Source of the DNA: Bacillota bacterium | Lineage (GTDB): Bacteria; Bacillota; Clostridia; Acetivibrionales; DTU013 | Direction: 5' to 3' | DNA length: 64,000 nucleotides | Assembly (NCBI GenBank): GCA_023435305.1 | Contig: JAEYRV010000053.1 | Location: 64,762-128,761, forward strand | Program-made: the position numbers and the translations under genes | The notes under the pieces: model-generated | Told to the model about the DNA's origin: nothing | Database searches by the model: none | The model's input: the letters and a program-made list of their open reading frames with translations, nothing else | Part shown: one piece after another, positions 14,941-60,529 of the stretch | How positions within the stretch are numbered: position 1 is the stretch's first letter | Layout of the letters: every line of letters starts with the position of its first letter

Positions 14941-15817
14941 AATCAACTGCGATATCATAAAAGACATAATTCCGCTATATATCGACGGTGTATGCAGTAA
15001 ATATTCCATACAAATGGTTGAAGATCATATAAAAGAGTGTCCGGACTGCAGGGATCTCCTTGAATCATTTCGGAATCCGGCTATTACCGATGAAATCAGG
15101 ACCAGCAATGAAATTGAATTCAAAGAACTGACGCTGAAGGTCAAAAAGAAAAACAGGCTCAAAGCGATACTTCTGGTACTGGGAGCGGTAATTGCCAGTT
15201 TTGTCGGTGCCTTGCTTCTGGGCATTTTTGTTTTAGGCATATTTTCATTAGGAGGAGAAAGCTACGCGACTATTGATACAGATAACTATGGGATATACGA
15301 AGGCCACATAGAAGCTGAAAGGCAGGATTTGTTCAGTGGACTGTACATTTTCCCTGAACGGATCTCACAAAATGCTTCGGTTATTGATTATTTTTACTCC
15401 TGTGAAGGTGGAGGATTCGACAATTCATATCAGCAATTTCTGAAGTGCACGTACTCGCAAGAAGAGTATAATGCGGAAATCAACAGGCTGAAAAATATTA
15501 CGTGTGAGATACCGGTAAGATCCGGACCTGTAGTAAACACTGTGGAATATTCTGATGTGAAGTTCAGCAGTCCAGCTTACATTACAGCTTATGCGAGCCA
15601 TGGCATGTTCGAATATGCTCTGTGTAATGATGCGGACAAAACTATCGTATATGTGTATCTTCAGTTAATAGGGAACGATGATGTAGTGTTCAACAGAGAG
15701 TACCTGCCACTGGAATATCAGGATGGCAAACCGCTGCTTGAGGATGTTAGCTTTAGCAATACAAATATTTACTACGCCTATGTAGGCAACGGAGTATATA
15801 TGAACTATAAAGACTGA
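14933..15817 (+). CDS. Anti-sigma factor (zf-HC2 type) with TM and extracytoplasmic domain
   Basis: It overlaps the sigma gene by 8 nt. It has the motif HIKECPDCRDLL (H-x3-C-x2-C), a TM segment (AILLVLGAVIASFVGALLLGIFVLGIF), and a C-terminal domain of about 190 aa. Confidence 0.8.
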   Translation: MSKINCDIIKDIIPLYIDGVCSKYSIQMVEDHIKECPDCRDLLESFRNPAITDEIRTSNEIEFKELTLKVKKKNRLKAILLVLGAVIASFVGALLLGIFVLGIFSLGGESYATIDTDNYGIYEGHIEAERQDLFSGLYIFPERISQNASVIDYFYSCEGGGFDNSYQQFLKCTYSQEEYNAEINRLKNITCEIPVRSGPVVNTVEYSDVKFSSPAYITAYASHGMFEYALCNDADKTIVYVYLQLIGNDDVVFNREYLPLEYQDGKPLLEDVSFSNTNIYYAYVGNGVYMNYKD

Positions 15818-16518: not shown

Positions 16519-17376
16519 ATGGATTTTTTCGAGCTCGTGTTATTATTTTCAACCGGTTATTACACGATTATAAGCATATACGGCTGGTATCAAAGGCTGC
16601 CTGGCATCGGGCCTGTAAGCCGGGATAAAACCACTAAGTATGTGATGGGTCTGCTGCCGGCCGTTTCATTTGTCATAATTACTTTTACACTGAAGGTTCT
16701 GGCATCGTTTGACGTTGTGGACGATATGATTTACATAATATTTTATGTTGTATTGGGGTATGCCTGGACTTTCCTTGGTATGCGTGCAGTCTTTATTTTC
16801 TTTGATATCTCATGGATCGACGATGTCCTGAGTTTAAACAACAAGGCCGCTTTATATGCCGTCAGCGGAGCATTTCTCGGATTGGTGACAATATATTCAG
16901 GAGCAAATATAGGAGATGGTCCGGGCTGGTGGTGTGTTATTTTTGCAGGAGGACTGGGGCTGATCTCGTGGTTCATTCTTGCAAGGGTCTTAAATTCATT
17001 TACACAGGTATTTGAACGTATTACTGTAGATCGCGACATCTATTGCGGAATTCGTTTCGGCGCATATCTGCTGGCCAGCGGTATTATTCTGGCGAGGGCA
17101 TCTGCAGGTGACTGGACATCATTTTACAGCACGATAATCGAATTTCTTGTCGGATGGCCGGTTTTACCGTTGACCGGGCTGGCGATATTAATTGAACGCT
17201 ATTATATATATAAAGCCAAACTGAATGAAAGCATCACCAACACATATTTGTTTGGCTCGCTGTACTGGGCCATGGCTTACCTTATGATTGCTGTTGCAAG
17301 CATTGTTGTGTTCCCGCTGGTTGAAAATCCGATATACGGCATTGTGTCCGCAGTACTTCCAGGTGTCGTGCTATGA
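16519..17376 (+). CDS. Integral membrane protein, possibly a DUF350-type repeat protein
   Basis: 285 aa with about 8 hydrophobic segments. Segments such as DDVLSLNNKAALYAVSGAFLGLV resemble the DUF350 N-x-A-x-A signature. Confidence 0.7.
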   Translation: MDFFELVLLFSTGYYTIISIYGWYQRLPGIGPVSRDKTTKYVMGLLPAVSFVIITFTLKVLASFDVVDDMIYIIFYVVLGYAWTFLGMRAVFIFFDISWIDDVLSLNNKAALYAVSGAFLGLVTIYSGANIGDGPGWWCVIFAGGLGLISWFILARVLNSFTQVFERITVDRDIYCGIRFGAYLLASGIILARASAGDWTSFYSTIIEFLVGWPVLPLTGLAILIERYYIYKAKLNESITNTYLFGSLYWAMAYLMIAVASIVVFPLVENPIYGIVSAVLPGVVL

Positions 17377-18581
17377 AAAAATCAATTGAACTGGCACTGA
17401 TTCCGAACGAGCAATATTCCGAATACCGATACAATGTTATATTCAAGGCGTATAAATGGGATCCGCAGGTGGGGGACCATAATACCATAGCAAAGCATGT
17501 TGTCCTGATGGACCAGGAGACTGTCGGCCAGCTGGAAACATGGGCCGAACAACTATCGGAAGAGACCATGCTGATGGAAGAGGCCTTTATTCATAAGCCG
17601 GAATTAGCGAAAAAACTGGGCCTGCCGCGGAAGGTCCTTAAAACATTGGACCGGCTCTCAAACTATGACAGGGACCAAAACGTCAGATTTATGCGGTTCG
17701 ATTTCCATCCGACGACAGACGGCTGGGCAGTGTCCGAAGTCAACAGTGATGTGCCCGGCGGCCTTGCCGAGGCATCTGTTCTGCCTCGGATTGCAAGCGC
17801 ATATTTTGACGGTTATGAACCTCGCCGGCACATTGGTGAAAGCCTATTACAAGCATTTTCGGAGAGGGTCGAAAAAGACGGCGTTATTGCATTTGTTCAT
17901 GCCACATCCTATTCTGATGACCGCCAGGTCATGGAATTTTTAAGCGACTATTTTCAGGCGAATGGATACCGTACTGTTTTTGCCGCGCCGGACCATATAG
18001 TATGGAAAGACAATAATGCGATGTGCATCATTGAAGGCAGGGAAGGCCCTATAGACGGTATCGTGAGGTTTTTCCCGCTGGAATGGCTGACAAATCTGCC
18101 CCGCCGGTCAGACTGGAAGGGGTATTACGATTGCATGACTGCTTCCTGCAACCACCCTGTTGCGATATTTACCCAATCAAAACGGCTGCCGCTGGTTTGG
18201 GATGGATTAGGTGTCGATGTATCCGCGTGGAAAAAATTATTGCCTGAGACCAGGGAGCCTAAAACGATCAGGCAGCAGGATGAAGATTGGATATATAAGC
18301 CTGCCCTGGGCAGAGTGGGCGAGGGCATTTCCATCAAAGGGGCGATAACTGAAAAAGAGCGTCTGCGTATCGTGAAGGCAGCACACAGGGACTCCGGGAA
18401 CTGGCTGGCCCAACGGAAATTTACCAGCCAGCCTCTGACGGATGTGAACGGGGAGGTATTCCATCTGTGTGTAGGTGTGTTTACGGTGAATGGAAAGAGC
18501 GCGGGCTTTTATGGAAGGATAAGTCCGTACCCCAGAATCGATGACAGAGCGAAAGACATACCATTATTAGTGAAAAAATAA
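17373..18581 (+). CDS. Glutathionylspermidine synthase-like ATP-grasp family protein (YjfC/YgiC-like)
   Basis: 402 aa with an ATGA start/stop overlap with the upstream gene. ...VRFMRFDFHPTTDGWAVSEVNSDVPGGLAEASV... resembles the GSP_synth family core (RFDF...EYNADTP). Confidence 0.65.
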   Translation: MKKSIELALIPNEQYSEYRYNVIFKAYKWDPQVGDHNTIAKHVVLMDQETVGQLETWAEQLSEETMLMEEAFIHKPELAKKLGLPRKVLKTLDRLSNYDRDQNVRFMRFDFHPTTDGWAVSEVNSDVPGGLAEASVLPRIASAYFDGYEPRRHIGESLLQAFSERVEKDGVIAFVHATSYSDDRQVMEFLSDYFQANGYRTVFAAPDHIVWKDNNAMCIIEGREGPIDGIVRFFPLEWLTNLPRRSDWKGYYDCMTASCNHPVAIFTQSKRLPLVWDGLGVDVSAWKKLLPETREPKTIRQQDEDWIYKPALGRVGEGISIKGAITEKERLRIVKAAHRDSGNWLAQRKFTSQPLTDVNGEVFHLCVGVFTVNGKSAGFYGRISPYPRIDDRAKDIPLLVKK

Positions 18582-18640
18582 AGGAATAATTCAAGCCTGA
18601 CCCCGATTTTGAATAAAGGAATAATTCAAGCCTGACCCCG
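18578..18640. repeat. Two direct half-copies of the dispersed palindromic element (AATAAAGGAATAATTCAAGCCTGACCCCG)
   Basis: Identical 29-mers lie at 18578-18606 and 18612-18640, between the stop of the ATP-grasp gene and the RBS of the next gene. Confidence 0.9.
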
Positions 18641-21110: not shown

Positions 21111-21941
21111 ATGGAGAAAGATTTGAGCAACATGGAAACGGAATTCATAAAGGGCAATATGTCGCAAGTACATAGAGATGGTAATGTTGTGCAAAGAGAT
21201 TTGAAACCTCAAAGCAAAACAATACACAGGCTGATGCGGCATCTTGAGGGCAAGGGTATAGTGTTTGTTCCGCGTTTTCTGGGCCTGAATGGTGAAAATA
21301 TGGAGATGCTGAGTTTTGTTGAAGGTACAACATTGGACGACTACCCTCCGGCCAGTGATATTCAAACCAGGCTGAAAATAGCCCGGGCAGCTGCTGAAAT
21401 GCTAAGGGAATACCATGATGCAACAATCGATTTTGTAAGGCAGCCGGAGGATATCTGGTTTTTGGAGTACCAAGGCGGTTTGGATAAAGAAGTCATATGT
21501 CATAATGATTTTGCACCTTATAATGTAACATTTAATAATAATATGCCTGTGGGCATGATCGATTTTGATACTGCATGTCCCGCGCCCAGGATCTGGGATG
21601 TTGCATATGCAGTATATCGTTTTGTACCACTGGGTGCAGAAACATTCGATCTGGAAAAAAATCGGTACCGGGGATATGATAAAGCGTTGGACTGCGCAGA
21701 AAGAAAGCTTTTACTCAGGGCATTCATTGATGCATATCAAGGCATGGATGCTAATCCGAAGCTGGAAGTTTCAGATGTATTGGACAATGTAGTATTGCGG
21801 CTGCAGGCTTTAGTCAGGCTTTTTGACGAGGAATGCCGAAAGGGAAATCCGGCCTTTGTCAAAATGAAGGAGGAAGGACATCAGCAGCTTTATATCAACG
21901 AAATTGAATTCATTAAGGATAATATGCAGGAATGGAAATGA
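21111..21941 (+). CDS. Phosphotransferase (APH/choline kinase-like) family protein
   Basis: 276 aa with the Brenner motif VICHNDFAPYN and the metal-binding MIDFD. Confidence 0.8.
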   Translation: MEKDLSNMETEFIKGNMSQVHRDGNVVQRDLKPQSKTIHRLMRHLEGKGIVFVPRFLGLNGENMEMLSFVEGTTLDDYPPASDIQTRLKIARAAAEMLREYHDATIDFVRQPEDIWFLEYQGGLDKEVICHNDFAPYNVTFNNNMPVGMIDFDTACPAPRIWDVAYAVYRFVPLGAETFDLEKNRYRGYDKALDCAERKLLLRAFIDAYQGMDANPKLEVSDVLDNVVLRLQALVRLFDEECRKGNPAFVKMKEEGHQQLYINEIEFIKDNMQEWK

Positions 21942-21946
21942 AACTT

Positions 21947-22006
21947 GGGGGTCAGGCTTGAGTAATTCCTTTATTTGAATAAAGGAATTACTCAAGCCTG
22001 ACCCCC
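21947..22006. repeat. Perfect 60-bp palindrome of the GGGGTCAGGCTTG element family
   Basis: GGGGGTCAGGCTTGAGTAATTCCTTTATT-tg-AATAAAGGAATTACTCAAGCCTGACCCCC, with 29 bp arms. Confidence 0.95.
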
Positions 22007-22031: not shown

Positions 22032-22571
22032 GAACCCTTTGGTGACGGCTCGCCTGCGGAGCGTATTTCGGGCGGAGGTGAATCCAGGGTTTCCCACACC
22101 TATGAGAAGGCCGGTGAATATTCTGCCAAGGTGATGTTGTATGACAAAAAGGGCAAGGCGCTCTCCTTCGACAGCGTAGGCATCATACTTGAAGAAAAAG
22201 AGACGGAATCACCTGTGGTGAACGGCAGCGAGAATGTGCCGGAGCAGCCCGGCGTGACGCAGGATGGAGAGAAACAGCCCGAACCCGGCGAATACGCATG
22301 GGTACTGGTGGAAACTGTGACCTATGATGCCAAAGAGCAAATATTCAATTTCTCCACACTGTCAGGAAGAAAGCAGATTACATGCTTTGAGCCAAAGGCT
22401 CGGCGCAAAACTTCCTCCGCTGCCGGTCATTATGCCTACAGAAGCTACGAATCTGACTGCCTCGGCTGTATAACCGGAAATGTCCTTCTCGTCTCTGGAG
22501 TATCTGGGCGAAATCCAATTTGGTATCTGCAGTCTATTCCCGTTAATACAAGAACGCAGGGACATGAGTAA
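22032..22571 (+). pseudogene. 3' remnant of a PKD-domain surface protein gene (no start or N-terminus)
   Basis: The frame is open from 22032 and reads ...FGDGSPAERISGGGESRVSHTYEKAGEYSAKVMLYDKKGKA..., which is the classic PKD signature (FGDGS...HTY..G.Y.V.L.V.D). There is no signal peptide, RBS or plausible start. It begins 26 bp after the palindrome. Confidence 0.55.
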
Positions 22572-40950: not shown

Positions 40951-41078
40951 AAAAATAAAAAACGCCTGGACAAACTATAATGTTTGCCCAGACGGTCGGC
41001 TCAGAAATATGCGCGCTCCCTGCAGGTCAACCTGCCACATCCTGTATTTGGATGCTTTCCGTCAGTTGCGCGGCCCAT
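40951..41078 (-). promoter_or_regulatory. ZTP (pfl-motif) riboswitch with expression-platform terminator
   Basis: The minus-strand RNA reads …GGGCCGCGCAACUGACGGAAAGC…GGAGCGCGC…GAGCCGACCGUCUGGGCAAAC… The ACUGACGGAA and CCGACCGUCUGGGCA blocks match the two conserved ZTP sub-domains, with a GACGG/CCGUC pseudoknot. The 3' block overlaps the terminator GUCUGGGCAAAC-auuauag-UUUGUCCAGGC-UUUUUUAUUUUUU. Confidence 0.8.
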
Positions 41079-41281
41079 ATGAATAATTTACATTATTGAT
41101 AAAAAAATTTCAAGCTATTTTATCATACTCAGGACTTTGATTTTACCTTTTCTGCGGACGAAACCTTATTGGCGAGGTACTTGACATAAAATATCTCTTG
41201 ACAATTTTTGCATTATTAAGTAGGATGATAAGGAAATAATTGTTGCAGTTAAATTCTTATGTGATTTAAGGGGGATGGAGT

Positions 41282-57399: not shown

Positions 57400-57514
57400 C
57401 GGGGTCAGGCTTGAATTTTAGTTGGGGGTCAGGCTTGAAATATTCCTTTATTCATATAATGAATAAAGGAATATTTCAAGCCTGACCCCCTAATAAAATT
57501 CAAGCCTGACCCCG
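57400..57514. repeat. Nested double palindrome of the GGGGTCAGGCTTG element family
   Basis: The outer arms are CGGGGTCAGGCTTGAATTTTA and TAAAATTCAAGCCTGACCCCG. They enclose the inner arms GGGGGTCAGGCTTGAAATATTCCTTTATTCA and TGAATAAAGGAATATTTCAAGCCTGACCCCC. Confidence 0.95.
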
Positions 57515-57628
57515 TTTTACCGTTTTAGACTATTTACAATAGTTTGCCCACATGCTCTTAGTATAAATATAGTATGGTATAATTTGCATGAATACTTTAC
57601 TTTATTTATACAAAGGGGGTCTGTCAAG

Positions 57629-58786
57629 ATGAAAAGATCGATTACCATGCTGTTGGTGCTTATGCTGCTGATGGCCTTGATCACAGGGTGCGGTTCCGGA
57701 GCTGTTAGCAATGATGTCGCCGACAGTTCTGCTGGACAGATTGATGAAGATAACAGTCAGGCGAAGGATGAGCAAGTACCTGATGCGGTGCAGGATGTCA
57801 GCACTGCAGATGAAAGTCAAATATCCGATACAACAAAGGATATCAGTGCCGTAGATGAGAGTCAGAATACTGATGCAGCAGAGGACCAGCAGGTTGATAC
57901 TGCTTCAGAAGATTCCATAAAAGAAATTCCAAATGTATATATGACAACAAGTATCAGTCCTGAAGGGTTGATGAATGTTTATAAGGCTCTTGACCGTGCT
58001 GCAGAAGGAAAGGTAGCTATAAAGCTGCATATGGGTGAGCCCGGAGGCCACAATTTTCTGTCTCCCGACCTTGTAAAGGATTTTGTCCAGTCGCTCAATG
58101 GTACATTTGTCGACTGCAATACTGCTTATGGCGGACTTAGGGGAACAACAAAGATGCATATGCAGGCGGCCGAAGATCATGGCTTCACTGAAGTTGCTCC
58201 TGTTGACATAATGGATGCGGACGATACTATCAGCCTTCCTATAAAAAACGGAAAACATCTGAAAGAAGACATAGTTGGTTCGCACTTTGAAAACTACGAT
58301 TTCTATGTAGTTCTATCCCATTTTAAAGGTCATGAAATGGGCGGTTTTGGCGGAGCGATCAAAAATATGTCAATAGGCATCGCATCTGTAAAGGGTAAAA
58401 ACCTGATACATACTGCAGGCAAAAGCAGCAGCAGTATGTGGGGCGGAATACAGGACAATTTTCTGGAGTCGATGGCTGAAGCAGCTAAAGCTGTAGCTGA
58501 TAACAGGGGAGAACGTATACTCTACATCAATGTAATGAATAACCTGTCCATTGACTGTGACTGCAATAACCACCCGGCAAAACCGGATATGGCTGATATA
58601 GGCATTCTGGCATCACTTGACCCGGTAGCTCTTGACAAAGCCTGTGTGGATCTTGTATACGCCGCTCCTGATGGACAATCACTAATAAAGCGTATGGAAG
58701 CAAAAAATGGGATACATACGCTGGAGTATGCAGAAGAAATAGGCTTGGGAAGCCAAAAATACAAACTTATAAAACTGGATGATTGA
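57629..58786 (+). CDS. DUF362 domain-containing lipoprotein
   Basis: I start it at MKRSITMLLVLMLLMALITGCGS (lipobox) after AAAGGGGG. An acidic linker is followed by a DUF362-like core (…VAIKLHMGEPGGHNFLSP…DCNTAYGG…). Confidence 0.7.
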   Translation: MKRSITMLLVLMLLMALITGCGSGAVSNDVADSSAGQIDEDNSQAKDEQVPDAVQDVSTADESQISDTTKDISAVDESQNTDAAEDQQVDTASEDSIKEIPNVYMTTSISPEGLMNVYKALDRAAEGKVAIKLHMGEPGGHNFLSPDLVKDFVQSLNGTFVDCNTAYGGLRGTTKMHMQAAEDHGFTEVAPVDIMDADDTISLPIKNGKHLKEDIVGSHFENYDFYVVLSHFKGHEMGGFGGAIKNMSIGIASVKGKNLIHTAGKSSSSMWGGIQDNFLESMAEAAKAVADNRGERILYINVMNNLSIDCDCNNHPAKPDMADIGILASLDPVALDKACVDLVYAAPDGQSLIKRMEAKNGIHTLEYAEEIGLGSQKYKLIKLDD

Positions 58787-58789
58787 TAA

Positions 58790-59689
58790 ATGATAGATAT
58801 ATTTGAACGAGAAGCGATATACCTGTGGTTTTATTTCAGTGTCCAGCTCAATCAGATCATCTGGTACTGGATAGTGGGTATTTTGCTGGGATCAGTGATA
58901 TCTGTATTTGGTAAAGAGAAGATCCACAAGCTTTTTTCTTCGATGGCTGACAAACGCCTTGGGATATTCGGGGTGGTGCCGGCGAGTATGATCGGTATCG
59001 CCTCTCCTCTTTGCATGTATGGAACCATTCCTATAGCTGCTTCCTTTTCCGAAAAGGGAATAAGAGATGACTGGCTGGCTGCCTTTATGATGAGCTCCAT
59101 ATTGCTCAATCCCCAGTTGCTCATATACAGCGCTGCGCTTGGAAAGACAGCTTTGGCGGTGCGATTTGTAAGCTGTTTTTTGTGCGGCATGGCTGCAGGT
59201 CTGTTCGTTCGGATATTCTATAAGAATAAACGCTTTTTCAATTTCGACGGCTTTACAGAAGCATCGAACAGGGACACACACCCAAATATATTAATACGCT
59301 TGTTGAAGAACATATGGAGAAATATCAAGGCCACAGGTGTGTATTTCCTGATAGGTGTTGCACTATCTGCACTGTTTCAACGATATGTGCCCTCAGAAAT
59401 TTTCGCAGGGCTTTTCGGCAGGAACCATGGTTTTGGTGTCTTAATGGCAGCCACCATCGGTGTGCCGCTTTATGTATGCGGCGGAGGAACGATCCCTTTG
59501 CTCGCGGAATGGTTACAGTCAGGAATGAGTATGGGGTCGGCAGCAGCTTTCATGATTACCGGACCTGCAACAAAAATCACTAATCTGGGAGCTGTTAAAA
59601 TTGTTCTCGGTGTAAGGCGATTTATACTGTATATATTGTTTTCAGTGCTGTTTGCTGCTGTAACCGGTATAATTATTAATATATTGTGA
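58790..59689 (+). CDS. Permease (predicted YraQ/ArsP-like permease family)
   Basis: 299 aa and polytopic. The motifs …SPLCMYGTIP…LLNPQLLIYS…ITGPATKITNLGAVK… recall the 'predicted permease' family. Confidence 0.7.
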   Translation: MIDIFEREAIYLWFYFSVQLNQIIWYWIVGILLGSVISVFGKEKIHKLFSSMADKRLGIFGVVPASMIGIASPLCMYGTIPIAASFSEKGIRDDWLAAFMMSSILLNPQLLIYSAALGKTALAVRFVSCFLCGMAAGLFVRIFYKNKRFFNFDGFTEASNRDTHPNILIRLLKNIWRNIKATGVYFLIGVALSALFQRYVPSEIFAGLFGRNHGFGVLMAATIGVPLYVCGGGTIPLLAEWLQSGMSMGSAAAFMITGPATKITNLGAVKIVLGVRRFILYILFSVLFAAVTGIIINIL

Positions 59690-59690
59690 A

Positions 59691-59780
59691 CGGGGTCAAG
59701 CTTGAAATATTCCTTTATTCATAAAATGAATAAAGGAATATTTCAAGCCTGACCCCCATTTAAATTCAAGCCTGACCCCG
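59691..59780. repeat. Palindrome plus an extra half-copy of the GGGGTCAGGCTTG element family
   Basis: CGGGGTCAAGCTTGAAATATTCCTTTATTCA-taaaa-TGAATAAAGGAATATTTCAAGCCTGACCCCC, then ATTTAAATTCAAGCCTGACCCCG followed by TTTTT. Confidence 0.95.
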
Positions 59781-59786
59781 TTTTTA

Positions 59787-60365
59787 TCAGTCCTGTCTGC
59801 CCTCGATTGCGCACAGAAGTAGTCCTGCGGCAAGGCCCAGACGTCTGTCAAGTATATGGTTGGTATCCTTAGCAAAATCGACATCAAGCTTCATTATAAA
59901 AGGATTGAATCTTTGTCTGCATACACCGACGACCTGCCCGTTAATTTCAATATCAAATGACTGGGGAATAAGATTTGTAAGGAAACGTCTGAGCAAAGCA
60001 AGTCCTGTACTATCTTCCTTTATGAATCCGATCTGATTGTCATTGGCGTCGAGTATCAGCCATTCATCCTTTATTATTGACTTGAGACCTTTCCTCTTCA
60101 ATGCTCCTACCTTTTCGCCGGTCACTGCATCAATAACATCATATGCCGCTGAAAAATCGATTACTTGTCTTGCTTGAATGGTTATGAGTTCATTTTGCAT
60201 GTCTTCGCCAGTGTAAAGCCGTATATCCTCCTTCAGCTTGAAGGCCTTCATTTTAGAAAACATGATTACCTGGCCGCTGGGATCAAAAACATGGAATTTC
60301 GCACCTACAAGTGTCAGGACTTTCCTTCGGATCAGATAATTCGGAAGCTCATAAAGGTTACTCAA
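59787..60365 (-). CDS. LURP-one/scramblase-like (DUF567-type) family protein
   Basis: …YLIRRKVLTLVGAKFHVFDPSGQVIMFSKMKAFKLKEDIRLY…LKRKGLKSIIKDEWLILDANDNQIG… fits the tubby-like scramblase/LURP1 family. I prefer the TTG at 60365, which lies 8 nt after AGGAG. The ORF can extend to 60428. Confidence 0.65.
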   Translation of the reverse strand: MSNLYELPNYLIRRKVLTLVGAKFHVFDPSGQVIMFSKMKAFKLKEDIRLYTGEDMQNELITIQARQVIDFSAAYDVIDAVTGEKVGALKRKGLKSIIKDEWLILDANDNQIGFIKEDSTGLALLRRFLTNLIPQSFDIEINGQVVGVCRQRFNPFIMKLDVDFAKDTNHILDRRLGLAAGLLLCAIEGRQD

Positions 60366-60529
60366 ATCAATCACTCCTATGTAAGATTTTACTGTAATAA
60401 TACCATATTTAGTGACAATTTTCCACATTTTTCATCATTTGAGTAATTCTTTTTTATACTGAGTAATCATTATGAATATATTGTCTTAGAAGTGATGCAA
60501 TTTGTTTTAACCAGGTGGGATGTCCCATC

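Follow-up and report, generated by a model that had tools for sequence, protein, structure and literature searches.

Hairpin repeats expanded in a Clostridia genome are probably derived from the terminal inverted repeats of a Y1/HUH transposase gene

The stretch of DNA considered here (the window, 64,000 nucleotides, positions 64762-128761 of contig C27 of the Clostridia assembly G000, GenBank GCA_023435305.1) contains four loci of a dispersed, hairpin-forming repeat, the unit of which also brackets, on another contig of the same genome, a gene for a Y1/HUH transposase. The elements are probably non-autonomous derivatives of a TIRtron, namely of a TIRYT gene (REP-associated tyrosine transposase (RAYT) group 1, or TnpA-Y1 subclass 2.1, an assignment that rests on published feature descriptions) with 28-bp terminal inverted repeats (TIRs), and it appears that these TIRs have been amplified as doublets similar to REPINs, the link between gene and repeat being an associative one. 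The hairpin family is a new, strongly expanded Clostridia case of the known TIRtron/TIRYT type of repeat.

TIRtrons or TIRYTs are RAYT-like genes flanked by long TIRs, many of which share the sequence GGGGWSAS, and for some of them moderately abundant repeat families, occurring as singles, dimers and clusters, have been described (Di Nocera et al. 2013, PMC3733652). In the survey of Quentin et al. (2018, PMC6006769), 20 of 26 TIRYTs belong to TnpA-Y1 subclass 2.1, the second-largest Y1 subclass, which is found in about 15% of strains, has C-terminal helix-turn-helix (HTH) domains including that of the Bac_DnaA_C type, and takes in 291 of 292 sequences of RAYT group 1; no adjacent REPs (repetitive extragenic palindromes) were found for its genes. 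RAYT group 1 occurs in Clostridia, and its flanking 16-mers have only about 12 occurrences (Bertels et al. 2017, PMC5581495). Binding, cleavage or mobilisation of the terminal repeats has been shown for no TIRYT (PMC3733652, PMC6006769).

The repeated unit is 28 nt long and non-palindromic, (C)GGGGTCAGGCTTGA-WWW-ATTCCTTTATT. In its consensus, (T)C-GGGGTCAGGCTTGA-[A/G][A/T][A/T]-ATTCCTTTATT, 15 essentially invariant nt are followed by three variable ones and by 11 that are at least 80% conserved. The variable positions are the 14th to 16th from the start of the core (AAA, ATA, TAA and others), with those on either side conserved to at least 95%, so that the variation over 4 to 6 nt described in an earlier, sequence-only reading of the window is real. 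Taken singly, the unit is not self-complementary (-1.1 kcal/mol, z 0.17), and only inverted pairs fold; the end of the unit, (T)CGGGGTCAGG in the consensus, is neither GTAG nor CGTC, while its start, GGGGTCAG, fits GGGG[AT][CG]A[CG] in all 144 exact-core copies and at six homologous loci.

When the core GGGGTCAGGCTTG was sought with up to two mismatches, 12 matches were obtained in the window against 1.09 expected, a number reached in 0 of 100 shuffles. Eleven of them make up the four loci, in agreement with the 11 copies and the arrangements first described, and the twelfth (43278, two mismatches) is likely due to chance. The family is not confined to these sites, as G000 (3.54 Mb in 63 contigs, 45.6% G+C, 84% completeness) holds 144 exact and 8 one-mismatch cores, GGGGTCAGGCTTGA being the commonest 14-mer of the genome. 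The cores cluster into about 74 assembled loci on 39 of the 63 contigs; because the assembler breaks inside palindromic copies, within which 35 of the 126 contig ends lie, this census gives the minimum number of copies and the maximum number of loci. The window is about three times denser in cores than the average of the genome, and the hundreds of copies extrapolated from it come down to about 150 cores at roughly 57-74 loci. No Rfam family matches the hairpin elements at gathering thresholds, and a literature search with the core sequence returned unrelated primer matches only. No long insertion sequence (IS) joined to the hairpin repeat was found at the contig ends, where contigs run into the palindrome and end; repeat ends other than the core at contig termini are unrelated in sequence.

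Poly-G or AT-rich junk stands directly after CGGGGT at 10 places, namely at contig ends (both ends of C27, C31, C35, C51, C58) and inside C43 (26419-26497). This resembles what two-colour sequencing chemistry gives when reads fail at the hairpin foot, and in C43 two failed read ends have probably been joined as an artificial palindrome, the assembly of that stretch then being wrong. Several more repeats, probably insertion sequences, recur at G000 contig ends.

The loci of the window, in window coordinates, consist of:

18577-18605, minus strand: half-unit 1, a single 28-nt TIR unit with a closing G, core at 18592-18604
18612-18640, minus strand: half-unit 2, an identical direct tandem copy of half-unit 1 with a period of 35 nt, in G000 only
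21947-22006, no strand assigned: simple TIR doublet, a REPIN-like hairpin with perfect 29-bp arms and a 2-nt centre (-34 kcal/mol, z -14.8)
57400-57420, plus strand: nested element, outer left arm, a short-form TIR of 21 nt
57424-57490, no strand assigned: nested element, inner full-length TIR doublet of 67 nt with a perfect 32-bp stem and a 3-nt tip (-36.4 kcal/mol, z -16)
57494-57514, minus strand: nested element, outer right arm, pairing over 21 bp with 57400-57420
59691-59757, no strand assigned: TIR doublet, the left core of which has one substitution (GGGGTCAAGCTTG)
59762-59780, minus strand: extra outer right half-core, followed by TTTTT

The sequence-only reading had these loci as intergenic, and all four either start 1-11 nt past a stop codon or hold the stop itself. 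The inner end of half-unit 1 gives the TAA (18579-18581) of a GSP_synth-family gene (17373-18581); the simple doublet begins 6 nt past the stop of an APH-family kinase gene (21111-21941), the nested element 11 nt past that of rubrerythrin (57388) and the last doublet 1 nt past that of an ArsP permease (59689), its extra half-core ending 6 nt before the stop of a convergent gene (59787-60428, minus strand). Folded as single-stranded DNA, the window hairpins reach -30 to -64 kcal/mol (z -13 to -20), the whole nested element, the inner doublet of which sits on the symmetry centre of the outer arm pair, giving -64.2 kcal/mol; the direct half-copies at 18577-18640 do not fold.

The link to a transposase was reached by following single cores inside contigs, outside the window, to one gene:

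G000:C42:13973-14902, minus strand: TIRYT gene, open reading frame (ORF) of 310 aa

It lies between inverted 28-nt units at C42:13947 (plus) and 14993 (minus), with a further unit at 15108 (minus), so that the association with a RAYT- or IS200-like transposase, which the sequence-only reading had proposed as a check, is indeed found. The protein matches Pfam Y1_Tnp (E = 2e-16); in NCBIfam it comes closest to REP_Tyr_transpos (REP-associated tyrosine transposase), scoring 68.8 bits where the cutoff is 80. The HUH motif (H59-V-H61) and the Y---NP motif (Y118-IHK-N122-P123, i.e. Y118-x3-N122-P123) are invariant across 12 homologues. In Foldseek, the AlphaFold model (pLDDT 80) has as top Protein Data Bank match the E. 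coli TnpA-REP (4ER8; E = 6e-8, TM 0.72), followed by the TnpA of ISDra2/IS608, and modelled residues of about 220-308 match domain IV of DnaA (3PVP and 1J1V; TM 0.75-0.76, rmsd about 3 Å). Consistently, the C-terminus matches Pfam Bac_DnaA_C with E = 1.1e-4, under the gathering score, and PF08299 is precomputed for several homologues. The gene is single-copy in G000; its two paralogues (C62, C15) are 29-38% identical and no core was found near them, and more distant paralogues have other inverted flanks of a GGGGAC type.

The features of a TIRtron, that is, a Y1/HUH gene with Y---NP, terminal inverted repeats that form no stem-loop, the sequence GGGGWSAS and a C-terminal HTH of the Bac_DnaA_C, HTH_23 or HTH_28 type, are all present, whereas the palindromic unit and GTAG/CGTC head of REPs are lacking, and this is why the elements are assigned to a TIRtron with REPIN-like doublets rather than to REPs and BIMEs (bacterial interspersed mosaic elements). 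Their first description as a family similar to REP/BIME or to MITEs (miniature transposable elements with inverted repeats) stands in that the repeats are dispersed, palindromic and mobile-looking, and falls with respect to the unit, which is not a REP but a TIRYT terminal repeat.

In G000 a second repeat, (A)AAGTTGAGAAGCGTCCCCAA (inverse TTGGGGACGCTTCTC), is present 27 times, and every copy falls within the same 75 kb of one contig (C62:48794-122265). One of them is situated upstream of the paralogous Y1 gene C62:67851-68729, at a distance of about 180 nt. The repeat is similar to the GGGGACGGTTCTC inverted repeats flanking TIRYT paralogues of other genomes and may be a second, locally spreading TIR family. 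Another combination, in which a terminator-like hairpin (GGAAACGG...CCGTTTCC with a T-run) comes after a single unit, is found at C27:50867-50960, outside the window, and at C42:15020-15120, directly upstream of the transposase element. A 13-nt probe for this hairpin detected two real copies only (C42:15042 and C27:50919), and the combination may be the relic of a longer element end.

The joint occurrence of gene and unit extends across Clostridia. In G007, the metagenome-assembled genome (MAG) of an uncultured Oscillospiraceae, a 75%-identical TIRYT orthologue has the same flanking units, and the DNA homology between the G000 and G007 loci ends exactly at the units, the flanks being unrelated. 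Altogether, inverted flanks of the GGGGTCAGGCTTGAA type are found for six homologues of 50-75% identity. Besides that of G007, these are from Clostridiales bacterium GWB2_37_7, two metagenomic contigs, a Desulfosporosinus MAG and Clostridium aceticum (CP009687), with identities of 65, 64, 60, 57 and 50%; in these five the gene has GGGGTCAGGCTTGAA...TTCC 5′ of it and the inverse sequence at its 3′ end, where the unit provides the C-terminal residues (...GIIQA) together with the TGA stop codon. Among homologues down to 50% protein identity the 15-nt core does not vary, and a 51% homologue of Paramaledivibacter has the related core GGGTCAGGCT.

The size of the repeat population varies widely. Among 38 genomes of the family, the 14-mer core is present 144 times in G000, 37 in G007, 22 in G001, 18 in G003, 13 in G018 and 11 in G008, with lower counts in the remaining genomes where it is present; it is absent from 24 of the 38, and the reversed core, used as a control, from all of them. 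The 15-mer core was found in 14 of 301 Clostridia genomes, with 121 copies in G000, 35 in G007, then 11, 9 and at most 4. G000 is the largest expansion among about 340 sampled Clostridia. A TIRYT orthologue was found in 2 of the 12 genomes of the genus, and these are G000 and G007.

Comparison of orthologous sites revealed presence/absence differences between related genomes. At the nested locus (57400), G008 (84-89% identity) and G007 are collinear with G000 and have a canonical intrinsic terminator in place of the element; at 59691, G008, of the same identity, is collinear with a GC-rich bidirectional intrinsic terminator in the gap. At 18577, there are two half-units in G000, one each in G008 and G005 and none in G001. 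In the latter (locus L055) the GSP_synth-family gene and the next gene share the overlap GTGA, suggestive of translational coupling; the half-unit inserted in G000, G008 and G005 brings its own TAA, by which this gene is ended early, and parts the two genes. Outside the window, a full 70-nt hairpin of G000 (C51:11418) corresponds in G008 to a 33-nt centre-deleted version at the same site, and an insertion at C40:14788 is common to G000 and G008 and lacking in four other species. These sites show gain, vertical inheritance, tip deletion and decay.

Synteny with relatives stops at the palindrome 21947-22006, and the open frame 3′ of it (22032-22571) has no Pfam match at E <= 1e-5 and no counterpart beside the kinase gene in G008, G005 or G007. 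A role of the elements as recombination hotspots, which had been raised for this site, is at present suggestive only: 2 of 10 informative element-bearing gaps are collinear with relatives as compared with 18 of 31 control gaps, a difference that is not significant (Fisher p = 0.067). As separate observations, a 2.3-kb segment of G000 (C51:5629-7969), bounded by an element at C51:7890, is lacking in G008; in G007 (C4:86926-91643) the TIRYT gene directly adjoins the region orthologous to C51:1929-5629; and the element at C42:18986 parts two flanks which in G003 and G001 belong to different contigs.

Throughout G000, which is 87% coding, nearly all loci lie outside ORFs. Where an element side faces the 3′ end of a gene, the stop is no more than 20 nt away in 52 of 64 cases (median 6.5 nt), as compared with a median distance of 91.5 nt for the 48 sides facing 5′ ends. 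As RNA, the full-length forms are predicted to fold with -46 to -108 kcal/mol, and two centre-deleted short forms with -27 and -31 kcal/mol. Such a position and such stability, together with the compensatory changes that keep the arms paired (see below) and the intrinsic terminators found in the element's place at two collinear sites of relatives, are what can be brought forward for a structural signal selected by the host, be it a 3′-end hairpin, a terminator substitute or a site for RNase III or another protein, which would owe its spread and maintenance mainly to selection and to recombination or gene conversion, with the same motif simply present at the transposase gene. The function as transcription terminator that was first proposed for the elements is, however, uncertain: the hairpin is there in every case, but a T-run follows it on 11 of 56 sides and on 8 of the 29 that are transcriptionally relevant, with a background of 8%, and a scan with sigma-70 and terminator consensus sequences gave nothing meaningful and called none of the elements. 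Termination is therefore plausible for a minority only; the elements with a U-tract could terminate transcription, and the RNA hairpins might act as a barrier to 3′ exonucleases, as RNA stabilisers or as RNase III substrates. Furthermore, six loci lie between divergent genes, and the presence/absence and decay among species, with 0 to 144 copies within one genus, are typical of selfish spread rather than of a conserved signal, which leaves host selection as the origin of the family clearly unlikely.

The anatomy of the loci informs on what is spreading. With up to two core mismatches, the arrangements +-, ++--, ++-, +--, ++, --, ++--- and +++ are observed, while the order -+ does not occur anywhere in the genome, and therefore clusters are always nested with their GC-rich cores outward. 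The commonest form is the inverted pair, a perfect hairpin of 28-32 bp and 65-72 nt (modal length 65-68 nt). Among inner +- pairs, which have stems of 28-32 bp and tips of 1-15 nt, 22 of 32 are perfect over 28 nt, and both arms have the variable triplet or tetranucleotide in common in 26 of 32, against 7.4 expected. Across the 32 stem positions of 27 doublets, Watson-Crick pairing amounts to 97% and at least two pair types are found at nine positions; at stem position 16, the pair is A-T 14 times and T-A 13 times, and a mismatch never occurs.

Perfect arms could also be obtained if only 28-nt units were dispersed and palindromes were made from them locally, by fold-back (template-switch) synthesis or tandem slippage. 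Half-units alone and in tandem arrays, the spacers of nested loci, which are locus-specific and yet palindromic, and partial duplications of the element end would suit such an origin. These duplications, of GGGGTC or GGGGTCA with 4-7 nt more, lie immediately beyond the outer core and are found at six loci against 0.8 expected:

G000:C9:3495, partial terminal duplication
G000:C17:40847, partial terminal duplication
G000:C24:28637, partial terminal duplication
G000:C27:81, partial terminal duplication
G000:C48:8940, partial terminal duplication
G000:C63:103, partial terminal duplication

Similar stutters (L127, L022, L023) stand upstream of the TIRYT genes of C. aceticum, G007 and GWB2_37_7, and may, like those of G000, be footprints of the chemistry. 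Against local synthesis speaks the fact that identical hairpin centres, e.g. CACCCAAGTG and CACTTGGGTG, recur at unlinked loci and at contig ends, from which it can be argued that whole doublets are copied. Moreover, the inner and outer pairs of nested loci are often different variants and, therefore, the products of separate events. Local fold-back as the source of the palindromes is thus highly unlikely. The doublet behaves as a unit, and it would be the doublet itself that replicates. In eight of eight symmetric ++-- loci (from nine in the census) the outer arms are near-equal in length, which places the inner doublet within a few bases of the outer symmetry centre.

At the 23 complete internal loci no target-site duplications were detected, and flanks complementary over at least 5 nt were found at only two of them, so that simple insertion into the loop of a terminator is not supported by the flanks. 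The target motif is weak, with T at -2 and C at -1 before the element. With its two 28-bp inverted repeats separated by next to nothing, a length of 65-72 nt and an AT-rich interior, the doublet has the anatomy of a conventional MITE, i.e. an internally deleted IS moved in trans by a DDE transposase that recognizes the TIRs in double-stranded DNA; this is, however, extremely unlikely in the light of the missing target-site duplications, of the sole gene-bearing element with these ends, which codes for a Y1/HUH and not a DDE enzyme, of the unrelated sequences of other repeat ends at contig termini, and of the nesting exactly at hairpin centres, which better suits single-strand or hairpin targeting. 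With the HUH domain, the lack of target-site duplications and of flank pairing fits cutting and rejoining of a single strand at the foot of the hairpin.

Under the TIRtron reading, inverted units would pair on single-stranded DNA, for example at the replication fork, to form a long hairpin, or a panhandle in the case of the gene-bearing element. The enzyme would recognize the invariant 15-bp GC-rich foot (CGGGGTCAGGCTTGA), plausibly through the HTH similar to DnaA domain IV, and its HUH/Tyr centre would nick at the foot and rejoin the strands, so that the doublet would move or be copied as one unit with no target-site duplication. Hairpin tips would be preferred landing sites, to judge by the inner doublets centred in all eight symmetric nested loci, and copies would survive almost only in the few bases past stop codons.

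Several points weigh against this scheme. The link between gene and repeats is associative. The identity of the arms could be due to hairpin-templated repair or fold-back synthesis instead of copying of the unit, simple transposition of doublets does not account for lone half-units or for direct tandem arrays (++, +++, --), and the proximity to stop codons could result from purifying selection and not from targeting. Furthermore, G001 and G003, with 22 and 18 cores, have no TIRYT orthologue in their assemblies, so that either the repeats persist without the gene or the gene is unassembled. Carriers of the gene are mostly unexpanded, with 5 cores in C. aceticum, 2 and 4 in the two MAGs and about 3 in GWB2_37_7, and the enzyme alone, therefore, does not predict amplification.

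A further step, speculative and rather unlikely, would be that the TIRYT inserts doublets preferentially in exposed tips of DNA hairpins, whether its own copies or the terminators past stop codons, and so gradually replaces the terminators of the host and takes over 3′-end formation. If true, it would amount to a target choice and a relationship between element and host undescribed for Y1 transposases, and would give the large subclass 2.1/RAYT group 1 a demonstrable activity.

For subclass 2.1, RAYT group 1 and TIRYTs there is no demonstrated substrate or role, and published surveys found few or no associated repeats. G000 offers a natural test case: a single intact gene is accompanied by about 150 hairpin substrates that are nearly identical, a close relative has a smaller population, and there are relatives with decaying relics; the candidate recognition site, of 15 nt, is invariant across Clostridia. 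In practical terms, the hairpins break short-read assemblies, as seen from the contig ends inside copies and from the poly-G read failures at their foot. In addition, they provide stop codons, break the coupling of adjacent genes and occupy the positions of terminators in relatives, and therefore should be accounted for in annotation and in expression models of such genomes.

Other abundant 14-mers of G000, GCCCCTAATTGAAA (83 copies) and AGGACTTTACTTGA (72 copies), are unrelated to the hairpin family and could be CRISPR repeats or further repeat families. The sole Rfam match in the window is a ZMP/ZTP (pfl) riboswitch at 40979-41079 on the minus strand, with 45 bits against a gathering score of 39.

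Among known systems, the MITEs that fold into RNA hairpins (Correia/NEMIS, RUP and ERIC) are likewise small, intergenic, bounded by TIRs and likely co-transcribed with upstream genes, but they are 100-160 bp long, derive from DDE elements and make target duplications. With IS200/IS605 elements (IS608, ISDra2) the family shares the catalytic fold, the presumed single-strand chemistry and the lack of target-site duplications. These elements, however, have subterminal hairpins on one strand, no TIRs and a defined tetra- or pentanucleotide target, whereas here the ends are inverse complements of each other and only a weak T-C preference precedes the element.

In structure, the catalytic domain is matched best by the TnpA-REP (YafM; 4ER8) of the E. 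coli REP/BIME system, with HUH and Y motifs that align, and the repeats of that system, too, are extragenic and lie just after genes. Its REPs are about 35 nt long, imperfectly palindromic and headed by GTAG, in alternating orientation within BIMEs, as opposed to unstructured 28-mers in clusters that are nested (+...-) and never alternating; moreover, E. coli TnpA-REP lacks the DnaA-like HTH domain. A trait of REPtrons is nevertheless present, as high-copy extragenic repeats occur together with the same repeats bracketing a Y1 gene in inverted orientation. The likeness extends to the REPIN-RAYT systems of Pseudomonas and enterobacteria (Bertels & Rainey 2011, PMC3116915), where an inverted hairpin doublet is the apparent replicating unit, a single-copy Y1 transposase gene has the same flanking repeats, copies are extragenic and populations are bigger where the gene is present. 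They differ in that the unit described here has no internal palindrome or GTAG head and the enzyme is from a different RAYT group; also, the strictly vertical inheritance at a fixed position that is typical of group 2 and 3 RAYTs does not appear to apply, since the gene contexts in G000 and G007 are unrelated.

The closest correspondence is with TIRtrons and TIRYTs themselves, which have in common with the present case a low-copy RAYT-like Y1/HUH gene, long TIRs in place of REP hairpins, a C-terminal HTH resembling Bac_DnaA_C and repeats that occur as singles, dimers and clusters. Published cases are mainly from Proteobacteria and Acidobacteria, whereas here a Clostridia genome holds 144 cores, and the dominant form is a perfect hairpin doublet of 65-72 nt.

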